NCBI GenBank assembly: GCA_976226885.1
Contig: OZ320322.1
Span: 42,222,001 to 42,286,000 of the forward strand
Reading direction: 5' to 3'
From: Iphione sp. A-MEVVRFRX5
Lineage: Eukaryota
Length of the DNA: 64,000 nucleotides
In this document: positions 8,136-32,036 of the stretch, piece by piece
How positions within the stretch are numbered: the stretch's first letter is position 1
Layout: each line of letters starts with the position of its first letter
Program-made: the position numbers and the translations under genes
The notes under the pieces: generated by a model
Told to the model about the DNA's origin: nothing
Databases searched by the model: none
What the model saw: the letters and a program-made list of their open reading frames with translations, nothing else

Positions 8136-8206
8136 AGTAGTGTATGAAGGTAACTGCCCTAGACCCCCTTTAGTGCAAAAAGGTCATCTGAGTGCGAACC
8201 ACTTGA
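8136..8206 (+). repeat. Left terminal inverted repeat
   Basis: First 49 nt are identical to the reverse complement of the right end; 67/71 identity over 8136-8206 versus 31966-32036 (4 transitions). Confidence 0.95.
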
Positions 8207-8290
8207 AGTTCGATTTTCGAGAAGGTCAAGTCAGTACAGAGGTACTTGAGATCGTCATAAACCACTTGAGTTTCCTTGAACCACTTGAGA

Positions 8291-8421
8291 AAAGATAAGA
8301 GAGATTATTTCAAATTTCCCGCGCATGGATCCTCTACTTGAGATAAGATATCATTTCAAATTTCCCGCGCTTATGAAAGATAAGTAGGTAGAGATAAGAT
8401 ATAATTTCAAATTTCCCGCGC
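8291..8421 (+). repeat. Subterminal direct repeat x3 (AGATAAG...ATTTCAAATTTCCCGCGC)
   Basis: Identical 18-mer ATTTCAAATTTCCCGCGC at 8307, 8353 and 8404, each preceded by AGATAAG. Confidence 0.9.
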
Positions 8422-8860
8422 CCTGAAGTTGGAGCGACTCTAGACACGATCAGTGTTAAGCATATGTATGAATGAAAGCGCTTCCCATCGATGTCCTTGA
8501 GCGCGGAAGCATTGACAATACCATTTGAAGGACATCATTAGGTCCTCCCATTATAATGACTCTCTTACAGCACTCGCCGACCGAACCACTGGAAAGATGG
8601 ATCGATTCCCGAGTGTGAAGAGTCAGTGTAGTGGGTGCGACCATTTTGTCCAATTTTATATGTGTTATAGGTGGAATTGAAGCAGTTTAAATAAGTCTTT
8701 CTTCATATCACCTTGACTGAGCAATGTTCTGTGTTCAAGAATGACCTGTTAATGTTTCATTCTCGATTTCGGGTCTGAAAAAACGTCTGTCCGGCTCCAA
8801 TGTGCATGACATCAGTTGTTAACGTCTGACGTATCGTCCTGACACTATAGAAACTCTCAT

Positions 8861-8946
8861 TAAGCATAGGTTGGAGAAACGAGAGATACCCGGTTCGATT
8901 CCCCAAGTATGCGGACGAGTTTGTAATTAGTGTCGGTGACCATTTT
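8861..8946 (+). promoter_or_regulatory. Pol III type-2 promoter-like sequence (weak A box, consensus B box, T4 downstream)
   Basis: B box GGTTCGATTCC at 8892-8902; A-box-like TAAGCATAGGTTGG at 8861-8874; TTTT at about 8943-8946. Does not fold as a tRNA. Confidence 0.3.
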
Positions 8947-9725
8947 AATTTATGTTGATGCGAGTCAGTTCAAATAATTGTATCTGAATGCTAGTCACTA
9001 TGAACTTTGTTGTGTGGAAAAGAGACGACTAGGTAAGTCTTTATTTGATTTTTAGAGTTTGCAAAAATGCAAGTCGGGAGAGCTCATCCAGATGGCGTCT
9101 GATGACATTTTATAGCGTCTGACGCGCGTCCTTGGGTTTTACACTAGATGGCGTATGTGTGCGGTGGATGTAATGGATTCACAATACATATAATCCATAT
9201 GGGATATGGTTATTATAGAAAAGATAAAGGCTCTAAGCCATCTTTAGATAAAGAAATTTCCCTTGCAACTGACGTCACATTATCCTATCGTTGACGATGG
9301 TGAGGCGATATGAAGAGTTCACACTATTGTATTTTGATATTACTGATAAAGTCCTTGACTGACATGTCTGAACACGTTTACAAGTGATTACATTATCTGT
9401 ACATACCGCTGGGATGGAGATATTACACTAGATATAGTCCTTGCTTCTTTTGTCCTGATCGTGTGGAATGATTTGAATTGGTTTGGATGAATGTAAGGAT
9501 GCATTTCCTGAAACCCTTACTGAAAGATACTTGAGACCAATGATACCCAGAAGAATACTAAGCGAAGGTTGAGAATGTCCATACATAACACTTAATTTTT
9601 TTTTGGTTGTTATAATCTGTTTCGGGTTATCATATAACCCTAGCTCTATCTTTCTGGGAGCATTACATTTGTTATTGAACCTCAGTCCGGACTAGACGCA
9701 GAAGCTTCACCCCCTTTGTTAAAAC

Positions 9726-10821
9726 ATGATGGAGATAGCTGGCAAATACATAATTCGGTCTTATGATCCACATCTGCATGGGAATCGGCATTTTCCTGAA
9801 CTATATATTCACGAAAAGAACGAAGTACATCGTCCAGTAGTATTATACATGAGTGACTATTACTGGAATTGGGAAAAGAACGAAGTACATATGAAGGACA
9901 TACTCGGACCCGCCCCAATGGGACGTCAAGTGGTGAAACGGGGTGATTCTCTCTGTGCTTTATGTGTGATGGATCTTTCTGATCATGCAATGGTGATTAC
10001 TGACGAGATATATGAACTGAAACATCGTCCATTGGAGGTGTATCGTCTGTTCAAGTCCAGCATGCTTGCTTTGAGGAGCATCCTGTTTGACGGCAAACTC
10101 AGTTTACTAACTCAAGCGGGTAATGCAGTCGTAGGAAGCATATGGCACAGTCTATCCAAACCCACCATCGAGTTTATGATCGAAAACGAAGACGGTGTGC
10201 TCGAAGATACCGATGAACATGCCATATATGAACAAATGGGTGATTTCGTAGCAGTTATCCAAGAAACTAATAGGAATGGTGATGCGAATCTGATGGAAGG
10301 AGATGTTAGAGATGCCGATGATGAAGATGATGATGATGAATTCAATGATCATTCTGTATTTTCCCCTTCTCATCTGGTTCGTTTGGTGGAAGATTCCAAC
10401 CTGAAGAAAAGGACCCACGAAAAGATCCAACGGCTCCCTCTCCCTTCGACATTGAAGGATTTTCTAAGTGAAAACATTCTAAAAAACAACCAAGGTCAGG
10501 TGAAGAACTTCGGTCAGGAAGGACAATCCCAAAACTACTGCGACTGGTATGGGATGACAGAGGCACAAGTGGATCGAGTTATTGACAAATTGGAGAGAGA
10601 GAATGAGAAGAAAAATGACAAGGTAAGAAGTTAAATGAATATAAAAAAAAAAAAAAAAAATGCAACGACTAGAACAGAAATTAGTGTATTATATCAATTT
10701 CTTTGTTGTTGAATTATGATAATCTTCAGTGACAAATTTGAAAGCAATAATGAAATTATTTTTTTTATATTTTTTTTTTTGACAGACAAAGGATGATAGC
10801 GCTGCCTGCCACTGTAACTAA
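9726..10821 (+). CDS. Polinton accessory protein A with BC-box and cullin-box-like motifs (putative Elongin BC/cullin adaptor); 302 aa unspliced (ends 10634) or 310 aa spliced
   Basis: ORF 9726-10634. SLLTQAGNAV (10101-10130) fits the BC-box pattern; IQRLPLPSTLKDFL fits the SOCS cullin box. Possible phase-0 terminal intron 10623-10785 (AAG|GTAAGA ... T-tract GACAG|) adding TKDDSAACHCN*. Paralogous to protein B (29698-30485). Confidence 0.75.
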
Positions 10822-29487: not shown

Positions 29488-29697
29488 GTCTGCAGAGCTG
29501 CCGAATGAACCCACGACGTCTCTGTAAGGTATCTTATATACACTGTGCTATGACGTAAGCACTCATCCCACCTAATCTGAAACAAACCCAAAATAAAACT
29601 TTGTTTCAGGGTATCTTATTTCAGCTGATAAACTTAACAAGTCTGAACACGTCTATTTCGTTATCATCTACTTGTATACACGCACACAATTGTTATC

Positions 29698-30485
29698 TTA
29701 TCTAATGAACCCTTGATAACTATCTGACGTCAGCTTTATCATATCTGAAGACGAACCGTTTTATCTATCGAACAAGTTACAACTTGTTTGAACACATAAC
29801 ACTGCAAGCAAACAGGTCGGAACACGCACTTACACGAAATGAATAACCTGCATATTGCAAATGCTACCATACCTGATTTCAATTTTTCATTAATTTCTTC
29901 CTCGTATTTCACATTCCATGTCATCCTGAATGCAACGTCTATGAAGCAATACTTAAAGTGGTTCAGTCGTTTCCTGCAAATATTCTCTTTTATCACTGCT
30001 TTCAATTCTGTAGGGATGTTCAGGGATTCGATATTCTTTTCCACTATATCCATAACACTCAGACCTCTTTCTAATCCGGAATGGGTTGACCGAGACTTTT
30101 CAACCGTGTCATTCCACATGTCCTCCACGAGACGTAAGGCTGAGATATTCAGGAGGGAAAGTTCATTTTTAAATAGTGATTCCCGGACTAATCGGATACT
30201 ATATGAAAACAGACGACAAATGTCCATCAATCTATGGGATAGTGCTTCGAACTGAGCCGACATGTCATCACCTTGGGGAGCAACGAGGGGGTTGATGTTG
30301 ACAGACGAGCAGTCTTCATCAAAAACATCTTCCAATCTCATCGGAATATCTGGAATAAGCTCTTCTTTGTGACGGAGATAGATAAACGGTCTATTCTTAA
30401 TCCCATGTCTTTTGGTATCGAGGGCGGATACAAAATAATGGTCATCTAAATCAAACGAGGGGGTAGTTGATTCTTCTTCAAGCAT
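29698..30485 (-). CDS. Polinton accessory protein B, paralog of protein A with BC-box and cullin-box-like motifs (248 aa unspliced to 29739; about 219 aa if spliced)
   Basis: First ATG at 30485 (the track start at 30536 is TTG). SLLNISALRL (30158-30129) and IESLNIPTELKAVI. Ungapped blocks align with protein A. Possible phase-1 intron 29872-29745 replaces a Cys-rich tail with DMIKLTSDSYQGFIR*. Confidence 0.75.
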
Positions 30486-31661
30486 TCTCAGTGGTTTTTT
30501 GGTTAATGTGAACAAGTAATGTACCGTGTATAGCAATCAAAGACGCAATATGGGACCGAATGGATTGCATTCTGGGAGACTAATAATTCTTCCGCTCAAC
30601 ATTTATTCGAAGAGCAACTTCTTTTATTTTTTTCATTATCATCAACATGATCAGTGATACAGTATTACACAGAAGAGTACATTTCAATTTAGACATACAT
30701 ATAAAAGAAACAAAAGTCCAAGCCACGAGAACTATCTCATTCTCACCAGAGGGCATCTGCATTGTTTTTCTTTCACAAAAGATGGCGTCTGATGTTCTAT
30801 TTACGTCGGACGAGATTCTTCATGTATCTACTCGAAACATAGCTTTAAGTCATCTTTATTACACACATCCTGAGATTACAATGGATCATTTCACTCGACT
30901 GTAAGAACAGCGGATAGTTTTCATGGAGCAAAGTCCTAAGTTTTATCATTAGAGTCAACATGTCAACAAACACCCGAAGGAAACACCATTTACGCATCAT
31001 TAGTTTCAATATCAAGCTCGCTTAAGTGGATGAGTACCGTTTTAATAAATGGTGACATCTCGACGAGAGCTGCTGCCAACTCAGGAATAATAATTTTTGG
31101 CTGGATCCCTTTTAGGGATCCAACAATCAAACAAATAAAATATAGTTACATAAAACAGGATGTTGATAAATGCAAAGACCTTCGCATGTGTTAAGATCAA
31201 TTTCTTCTACCAATTATTTCTCGGGTTAGTTCCTCTGCATCCCGCATTACGCCTTGACAGCGCTCCATCCTCATAAGTCAAGAAAAATCAGACTTGTAAT
31301 TACTATACGCGTAACATCATCCATCTAAAAGCTTTGACCCTATGATAAGCAGGATGAAATTAGCCTATTATCTTCATTAACCAAGCCGCTGTACTATCTG
31401 AAATCAATTCCATTCAACTTCAATCATATAATCTATCATTTGTACTTGCTCCATCATAAAAACACCCACTGATGTCAACTAATTTCATCACATAAGTGTC
31501 AATCTTCGCAAGCTACGAGTCGTATCGCAAGATATCCTCGATGAAAGTTATGGATTTCCTTACCAAGGTAAGTCCTTTCTTTCTTAGCCTATCATTTCCG
31601 GATTCAGGAATTTTTGGAGAGCTCTGCAAAAGGGCTCGAAAATTAAACAAAGGATAAGGCC

Positions 31662-31803
31662 NNNNNNNNNNNNNNNNNNNNNNNNNNNNNNNNNNNNNNN
31701 NNNNNNNNNNNNNNNNNNNNNNNNNNNNNNNNNNNNNNNNNNNNNNNNNNNNNNNNNNNNNNNNNNNNNNNNNNNNNNNNNNNNNNNNNNNNNNNNNNNN
31801 NNN
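31662..31803. other. Assembly gap (142 N) in the right subterminal region
   Basis: Run of N. Confidence 1.
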
Positions 31804-31965
31804 CGCTCTTATCTCTTATCATTTGAAAAGTCAAGTAGCGCACTGTTCTTATCATGACGTGATCTCTCTTATCTATAAGTAGGGACAACCCTTATCAGGT
31901 CGTAATCTATCTCCTTATCTATGTAGGTCAAGTTGAAAATGGAAACTCAAGTGGTTCAGGGAAAC

Positions 31966-32036
31966 TCAAGTGGTTTGCACCCAAATAACCTTTTTGCACT
32001 AAAGGGGGTCTAGGGCAGTTACCTTCATACACTACT
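31966..32036 (-). repeat. Right terminal inverted repeat
   Basis: Reverse complement of 8136-8206 (67/71 identical). Confidence 0.95.

Follow-up and report, generated by a model that had tools for sequence, protein, structure and literature searches.

The NADAR-tailed polymerase of a Polinton

A Polinton was found at positions 8136-32036 (23,901 nt) of a 64,000-nt stretch of DNA from Iphione sp. A-MEVVRFRX5 (assembly GCA_976226885.1, contig OZ320322.1, positions 42,222,001 to 42,286,000 of the forward strand), which is here called the window and to which all coordinates refer. Its novelty over known Polintons is a NADAR-fused, probably spliced polymerase. The element ends in AGTAGT//ACTACT and is flanked by a 6-nt target-site duplication, ACTACG, identical in the left (8130-8135) and right (32037-32042) copies; among six nested end positions with a match of >20 nt, the duplication was present at one. 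The terminal inverted repeat is perfect over 49 nt, in which 8136-8184 (plus strand, starting with AGTAGT) pairs with 31988-32036 (minus strand), and it continues imperfectly to 8210 on the left, with 93% identity across 75 nt. Integration was through an integrase-type mechanism by 6-nt duplication, and the 49-bp perfectly matched ends and unmutated duplication described in a first-pass annotation of this DNA were both confirmed.

The last polymerase exon (12264-17240, plus strand), which holds an open reading frame (ORF) of 1614 aa, encodes three C2H2-type zinc fingers (zf-C2H2, E-value 1e-11), N-terminal domains, an exonuclease, a Vsr-like insertion, a protein-primed polymerase core and the NADAR domain. 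A model of residues 631-1614, built on a 23-sequence alignment, had a mean pLDDT of 86.6, and its best fold match was the phi29 polymerase (E-value 1e-9; Z 22.2, rmsd 3.6, 470 aligned residues). The catalytic positions D640, D868, K1190, D1290 and D1292 were invariant in all 23 rows, and exonuclease and polymerase motifs were present. The insertion matched the Vsr profile (E-value 3e-4), with D940 and H968 invariant in the 23 rows.

The C-terminal domain (16770-17234, plus strand; aa 1459-1613) has a NADAR fold, catalytically degenerate, which is fused to the Polinton polymerase in a single frame. The Pfam family PF08719 matched residues 1480-1606 (E-value 5e-12, 46.8 bits against a cut-off of 35.1), and TIGR02464 also matched the tail, below its own cut-off. 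A single-sequence search with the tail gave no match in the PDB, for which profiles were needed; the model, with a local pLDDT of 80-94 per ten-residue block, superposed on the Phytophthora NADAR 8BAU (Z 17.1, rmsd 2.2, 153 aligned residues) and on Escherichia coli YbiA (Z 15.2).

Relatives were collected by a search with polymerase residues 1100-1614, which returned 356 proteins, and the best 120 of these were analysed. An alignable NADAR tail was present in 22 of the 120, a share inflated by the inclusion of the tail in the search region, and the PF08719 label was precomputed on 15; about 90 of the best 120 end at the thumb. These 22 tails and the query make up the 23-row NADAR alignment, from which five other long tails were excluded, three being shrunken to the last motif (P0083, P0089, P0107), one consisting of repeats (P0103), and one belonging to another domain (P0031). 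In P0031, a related polymerase, PF14216 stands C-terminally in the place of NADAR, which suggests that the C-terminal end of the polymerase can receive different captured domains.

In a FastTree phylogeny of the polymerase core without the tail (121 rows, 794 columns), 21 of the 23 carriers, the query included, fell inside one 26-row clade (support 0.915); of its other five members, three have shrunken tails, one a partial tail and one no tail, and carriers P0082 and P0091 were outside it. The tail trait requires five changes on the tree, against a mean of 21 and a minimum of 14 in 1000 shuffles. On the sequences compared, this distribution shows that the tail was passed on by descent and is no evidence of co-evolution, and the tail was retained in frame over clade branch lengths of 0.3-0.8 substitutions per site. 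None of 15 Polinton-like loci from a bacterial genome collection, described below, extends into a NADAR tail or matches any accessory ORF.

Active-site residues were mapped to 8BAU by profile alignment and not by residue-level superposition, with residue names after PMC11543638, the numbering of which we read as that of the chain minus two. Equivalents of E43, W89, R93, D130 and W133 are kept in the query, in which K50 is replaced by Leu, R79 by Asp (in uncertain register) and E125 by Phe. An acidic residue or His was found at the E125 position in none of the 23 rows, nor at the position two residues before, and all 22 rows having a residue at the E125 position have a hydrophobic one. E43 is kept in 8 and K50 in 7 of the 23 rows, both together in one (P0004), while the pocket residues W89, D130 and W133 are kept in 18, 17 and 15 rows, respectively. 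Hydrolysis by characterised NADARs is described as dependent on these residues, with Glu, Asp or His swapped between families at the key last-strand position and the lysine also required (PMC11543638; PMC12945103), and in one NADAR even a Glu-to-Asp change abolished activity (PMC12945103). None of the 23 aligned domains has the catalytic glutamate, which makes binding a more probable function than standard hydrolysis. On these alignments, standard NADAR catalysis has probably been lost, and the chances that the domain binds ADP-ribose or modified DNA appear about even; a non-catalytic binder would rank as the most likely reading of the tail, a reused fold as the next, and an enzyme with a rearranged site as the least likely.

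Predicted introns and integrity of the element

As a correction to the first-pass annotation, the polymerase ORF is read as the final exon of a gene predicted to have five exons and four phase-0 introns, with a predicted product of 1,849 aa. The four upstream exons, all open and on the plus strand, are exon 1 (11174-11332, 159 nt, with an ATG in CCACCATGG context, a TATA box 44 nt upstream and a GTAAGT donor), exon 2 (11429-11557, 129 nt, phase 0), the Ser/Ala/Thr-rich exon 3 (11661-11852, 192 nt, phase 0) and exon 4 (12015-12107, 93 nt, phase 0), which has the weakest acceptor. Each is divisible by three and is followed by GTAAGT or GTGAGT, and four GTRAGT donors within 1.1 kb occurred in 0.9% of Markov resamples (P 0.009). 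The predicted introns are 96-162 nt long and of GT-AG type, with stops in all frames and a lower G+C content. The frame of the last exon opens at 12258, six bases before an acceptor scoring 7.8, and the zinc fingers lie upstream of the first ATG of this exon. In four of the six related loci that retain the region (L003, L005, L011, L013), a strong acceptor, outscoring anything in 2-3 kb of the coding sequence of the same locus, lies just ahead of the first zinc finger, and no Met intervenes. The last polymerase intron, and with it nuclear transcription and splicing, is very probable from these signals. Altogether, eight introns were predicted, four in the polymerase gene and four in accessory genes.

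In intact vertebrate Mavericks no introns were seen, in agreement with the founding description, according to the available text of PMC8097293. Among literature titles on Polinton introns and splicing, none concerned spliced polymerases of animal Polintons. Transposons that generate introns in viral elements of protists are reportedly the subject of published work.

All core frames, which run on the plus strand between 12396 and 22528, are open, and no disabling change was found across 8,985 core coding bases. The ATPase, integrase, major capsid and protease each gave a one-frame, nearly end-to-end alignment to the counterpart in L008, one of the 15 loci, in accordance with the earlier claim that the core ORFs lack frameshifts and stops. 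From the 49+6 matched bases (55 pairs), the age can be limited only to <2.7% divergence per copy. A tighter limit comes from the stop-free core bases, <0.74% when only stops are counted and <0.35% when an assumed indel rate is added, both values presuming neutral decay. On this presumption the insertion is young and the description of it as recent was fair. Its identity as a Polinton is supported.

Intactness, which had also been claimed, could not be read off the whole element because an assembly gap of 142 N (31662-31803) lies inside it, in the right subterminal region 233 nt from the right end. The first-pass annotation had overlooked this gap, across which alone the right terminus is joined to the element; the matching duplication supports the join, and the ends, duplication and open core stood as described. 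The element is a genuine, apparently complete Polinton, which may be mobile and able to form virions. No second copy was detected within the 64-kb window by self-BLAST.

All 15 Polinton-like loci carry bacterial bin titles and are probably mis-binned animal DNA. L008 (8096-21809) is a near-complete Polinton with an IAP-like gene, on a contig of 52 kb that is listed under a cyanobacterial bin.

Interpretation of the fused polymerase

The reading preferred here, with a probability of roughly 0.7, is that of a recent Polinton (endogenous polintovirus) of the Vsr-inserted polymerase group, the host of which is probably a marine invertebrate, with a spliced polymerase and, as in most of its clade, a NADAR tail that binds rather than cleaves. 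Integrase-type insertion left the 6-nt duplication, and transcription by host RNA polymerase II with nuclear splicing would give the polymerase from five exons; protein-primed synthesis would copy the element, and packaging would be possible, as is known of the family. The polymerase clade would have gained its C-terminal NADAR long ago and then kept it, preserving its fold together with some of the pocket for ADP-ribose (the W89, R93, D130 and W133 equivalents). As the catalytic glutamate is absent and the essential lysine is lost in the query, the domain most likely binds and does not cleave; tethered behind the polymerase thumb, it could read or clamp nucleic acid, whether plain or bearing ADP-ribose.

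Several observations weigh against this reading, in addition to the inflated share of carriers and the mapping of residues by profile. R93 is kept in only 10 of the 23 rows. Among the best 120 of the 356 relatives, none of the 16 that are named by organism (nine molluscs, three lancelets, three sea cucumbers and one bacterial bin) has a NADAR tail. The tail, 30-44% identical between the query and its four nearest relatives, evolves more quickly than the core, with 52-56%, and the three shrunken tails and one absence within the clade also fit a decaying or structural domain. For the introns, splice sites were scored with a home-made set of weights, only two of the eight polymerase splice sites passed the scan thresholds, and two of the six related loci (L004, L008) lack the acceptor found in the other four.

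The faster divergence of the tail weighs toward a fold that was captured and exapted for a task not involving ADP-ribose, such as processivity or protein contact, or toward a slowly decaying passenger. The repeated shrinkage or loss within the clade, the roughly 90 relatives that manage without the domain and the different tail of P0031 point the same way; this explanation is nevertheless somewhat unlikely, given the in-frame retention of the tail over 0.3-0.8 substitutions per site and the conservation of pocket residues D130, W133 and W89 in 15-18 of the 23 rows. An active hydrolase with a rearranged site, erasing host-placed ADP-ribose from the template on either side of the fork in the way that phage AdfN counters DarT1, would agree with the intact fold (Z 17.1), with the five active-site equivalents present in the query and with the variation of Glu, Asp and His that NADAR families already display at the key position. 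It would also have precedents in phage NADARs, counter-defence enzymes that strip defence-placed ADP-ribose from phage DNA (PMC11825919), and guanine-modifying CARP-1 homologues are reported chiefly from bivalves and from some other animals (PMC12945103). The uniformly hydrophobic key position, the scarcity of E43 and K50, present together in one row, and the inactivation of one NADAR by the Glu-to-Asp change make such an enzyme improbable, and a non-catalytic binder is preferred.

If the upstream exons were chance or a separate small gene, the polymerase would start at the ATG at 12396. The exon peptides are indeed of low complexity and without a match in the 15 related loci, and the acceptors of exons 2-4 score <4; against this, that start would remove two of the three zinc fingers, the frame of which opens just before the acceptor scoring 7.8, and the acceptor arrangement recurs in four of six relatives. 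The alternative is accordingly very improbable, and the spliced gene is retained. A wider doubt is whether the element might be a young but silent or dead provirus, its frames open merely by recency, without transcription or particles. The lack of a second copy in 64 kb, terminal repeats close to the lower limit of the published lengths and the gap near the right end would all suit this possibility, which we rate as less likely than not; the 8,985 core coding bases without a disabling change and the coherent promoter-like and splice signals argue the other way, neither being itself proof of activity.

A role of the NADAR domain in counter-defence is speculative and rather unlikely. The same holds for a joint and more speculative reading, in which animal hosts would ADP-ribosylate the bases of incoming viral DNA by CARP-1-like or PARP-like enzymes, and the Polinton clade would answer, as full nuclear viruses, with a replicase-fused reader or eraser together with adenovirus-like splicing and ubiquitin-ligase adaptors. 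By analogy, this would parallel in eukaryotes the DarT-NADAR conflict that is known from bacteria and their phages.

In other respects the element is ordinary. The 134 intact vertebrate Mavericks described in PMC8097293 span 12.7-24.6 kb, have terminal repeats of 46-1,447 nt and in most cases carry accessory flanks on both sides; the present size, repeats and flanks lie within this range, and the headline of the first-pass annotation therefore describes an ordinary Polinton. Intact Polintons are common, so that this headline, which omitted both the NADAR fusion and the introns, adds little. Shared with the vertebrate elements (PMC8097293) are the AGTAGT//ACTACT ends, the 6-nt duplication, the polymerase, ATPase, integrase, major capsid, probable minor capsid and protease, small conserved ORFs, two accessory flanks and the size; different are the placement of all core genes on one strand, reported for Xenopus too, the predicted spliceosomal introns and the NADAR tail (PMC8097293, as far as its available text goes). 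The Vsr-like polymerase insertion is known from pPolB2 elements of molluscs and a marine nematode (PMC10748475), to which the present element is likened by the insertion and by marine invertebrate relatives, and from which it differs in that no NADAR, YbiA or DUF1768 occurs in a supplement of that paper.

The tail resembles the NADAR/YbiA hydrolases (8BAU, 2B3W; phage AdfN) in its fold and in a portion of the pyrophosphate pocket, and it differs from them in its fusion to the protein-primed DNA polymerase of an integrating element and in the clade-wide absence of the catalytic glutamate. RNA-virus polyproteins likewise place a NADAR beside a viral polymerase, as surveyed with the NADARs of giant viruses in PMC9503650, the available text of which does not mention Polintons. 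A fusion of NADAR to a Polinton polymerase was not found in the literature searched, which omits most subscription journals and repeat databases; it was absent from the available text of PMC11131425, as was the term ADP from that of 10.64898/2026.10.13.758929, and the accessible part of PMC11161782 describes only N-terminal domains and inserted nucleases.

Base ADP-ribosylation of animal DNA is known from few enzymes and has no settled role, and the fusion offers a testable handle on whether this modification acts against viruses. For annotation, an ORF-based treatment of Polintons would truncate such polymerases and lose their first exons, or count these as accessory or junk, and the use of "intronless" as a criterion for intact elements would misjudge a group with predicted introns.

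Remaining core genes, accessory genes and non-coding regions

The core block (11174-22528) makes up 47.5% of the element length and 52% lies outside it, so that the earlier estimate of half the element as accessory holds by span; by content it does not, as the gene predictions give 45% core exons, 22% accessory exons and about a third non-coding sequence. Downstream of the polymerase, all on the plus strand, the block starts with an A32-like packaging ATPase of 211 aa (17281-17916) with Walker A/B motifs, a weak Pox_A32 match (E-value 0.019) and 36% identity to the L008 ATPase (E-value 3e-40). A conserved 108-aa protein (17980-18306) follows, which matched a 110-aa L008 protein in the same place (E-value 3e-4) and has ORFs of like size in L002 and L007. 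The next ORF (18297-18824) encodes a low-complexity polyproline protein of 175 aa; proteins of 140-153 aa with ends similar by eye stand after the same genes in L002 and L007, and as these share the short form, a frameshifted remnant was ruled out. A pure GCC run within it (18497-18585) gives about 30 prolines and could be an expanded microsatellite. The retroviral-type integrase of 385 aa (18797-19954) has a chromodomain and a D81/D161/E195 triad, with rve (E-value 1.4e-8) and Chromo (1.9e-8) matches above the Pfam cut-offs.

The major capsid protein (20710-22050, 446 aa, double jelly roll) reached an Atlas feature score of 0.98 to clusters with PF21738 on 14-30% of their members, and 28% identity to the L008 capsid (E-value 8e-57), which itself matches PF21738 weakly; a single-sequence search gave no PDB match. 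The adenovirus-like cysteine protease (22031-22528, 165 aa) has the residues H61/D78/Q111/C117, a Peptidase_C5 match of E-value 0.0027 and an L008 match of 9e-18. Both protease and ATPase are thus below the Pfam cut-offs, with the expected motifs present and clear L008 matches. Between integrase and major capsid, the ORF at 19879-20385 encodes a probable minor capsid protein, putatively a bare single jelly roll, of 168 aa from the first ATG and 130 aa from the second, with a likely start at 19993. Its N-terminus resembles that of a 276-aa L008 protein (E-value 7e-6), the middle part of which is missing here. The best of five models was an all-beta sandwich with a pLDDT of 64 (30-53 in the others) and a TM-score of 0.56 to a 161-aa adintovirus protein. 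A wide fold search gave jelly-roll-type matches up to Z 7.9, with none at Z of at least 8 and no named Polinton penton; a single-sequence search gave no PDB match, none of seven candidates was kept in the homologue search, and Atlas scores were all <0.8. Position, N-terminal match and model together moderately support its assignment. The set of polymerase, ATPase, integrase, two capsids and protease reported earlier hence stands for five members, the minor capsid being the probable one.

The 108-aa basic protein before the major capsid (20400-20726) has only a compositional likeness to a 131-aa L008 protein in the same place, and is a candidate DNA-packing core protein. A small protein after the ATPase and a basic protein before the major capsid, both placed as in L008, are shared with the beta-type adintovirus module (PMC8502044). 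Differences from that module are the lack of a recognised gasdermin-like domain in the basic protein, the short minor capsid, and the oncoid, Bcl2 and IAP accessory genes present there; for its Cupiennin-like and GasderminX virion genes only positional counterparts were found. The adintovirus account lists other accessory classes, and SOCS and splicing go unmentioned in its available text (PMC8502044).

The five accessory genes encode two membrane proteins, two paralogues and one orphan. Paralogue A (9726-10821, plus strand) has exons 9726-10622 and 10786-10821, the latter short, around a predicted phase-0 intron (10623-10785; splice scores 7.2 and 10.9), and paralogue B (29739-30485, minus strand) encodes 248 aa. 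The two are situated at opposite ends of the element, both pointing inward, and their paralogy has an E-value of 1e-7. No homologue was kept among 236 candidates for B in large collections, and the two representative-search matches of A were tandem-repeat artefacts, no true homologue. BC-box-like and cullin-box-like patterns occur at aligned positions in both proteins (in 0.3% and 0.8% of shuffles), and A matches the SOCS_box family of Pfam with an E-value of 3.6e-4. As a lead, A and B may recruit an Elongin-cullin ubiquitin ligase; against this, the box patterns were selected post hoc, and the SOCS_box match, at 21.1 bits, is below the cut-off of 23.5. Viral Elongin-cullin adaptors include adenovirus E4orf6 and lentiviral Vif, which resemble A and B in having the two motifs apart in the sequence; no sequence relation is evident between them and A and B, for which no homologues were found and binding is only a candidate function.

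Both membrane proteins are single-pass, with Cys-rich heads and Ser/Thr-rich stalks. Membrane protein 1 (22769-23764, minus strand) has a mucin-like stalk (38% Ser+Thr), one transmembrane segment and a short basic tail. Membrane protein 2 (24434-26712, plus strand; about 559 aa in exons 24434-25584, 25865-26387 and 26707-26712) has a signal peptide, stalk, transmembrane segment and long tail; its prediction is based on a matching phase-2 junction, a second frame that opens at 25863, beside the acceptor, and hydropathy. The orphan (28321-29487, minus strand; about 326 aa) has exons 29487-29222 and 29035-28321, with a donor of 5.8, an acceptor of 8.8 and a matching phase-2 junction. Two of the predicted accessory introns connect long frames with matching phase. 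Comparisons of both membrane proteins and of the orphan covered Pfam, NCBIfam and the 15 loci, with no match in these loci; membrane protein 1 had no Pfam family above the cut-off and the orphan no Pfam match. The accessory flanks may encode host-facing proteins, with two surface glycoproteins in addition to A and B. The ORF at 28321 was ruled out as a third paralogue of A and B, having no significant match to them. Its exon at 28321-29035 contains an LxCxD variant of the Rb-binding motif, and the unrelated minus-strand genes of the orphan and of B share a 12-nt sequence around their stop codons (28321-28330, 29739-29748).

Three subterminal 31-nt direct repeats with GATA-type motifs (repeat family D10) were found at 8294-8421 (plus strand), and WGATAA has a density of 11/kb at 8136-8500, the flanks having 1.1-1.3/kb. 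In three stretches, 8136-8500 and 31804-32036 close to the two ends of the element and 29500-29760 separating the two minus-strand genes, the density of GATA-type motifs exceeds that of the flanks 10-20-fold, and these clusters are possible host-factor sites for a promoter or origin. An A+T-rich region without long ORFs (27395-27840) has four close copies of a CAGGTGCTGATT-like motif and, at 27480-27840, two degenerate repeats of about 180 nt (78-82% alike), which encode similar short peptides in one frame; it may represent micro-exons, a decayed gene or an enhancer array. Rfam gave no match in 8000-32200. None of ten ORFs in the flanks of the element matched a family above the cut-off, and one of the flank ORFs (57964-58326), with a weak immunoglobulin I-set match (E-value 0.009), is possibly a host exon.

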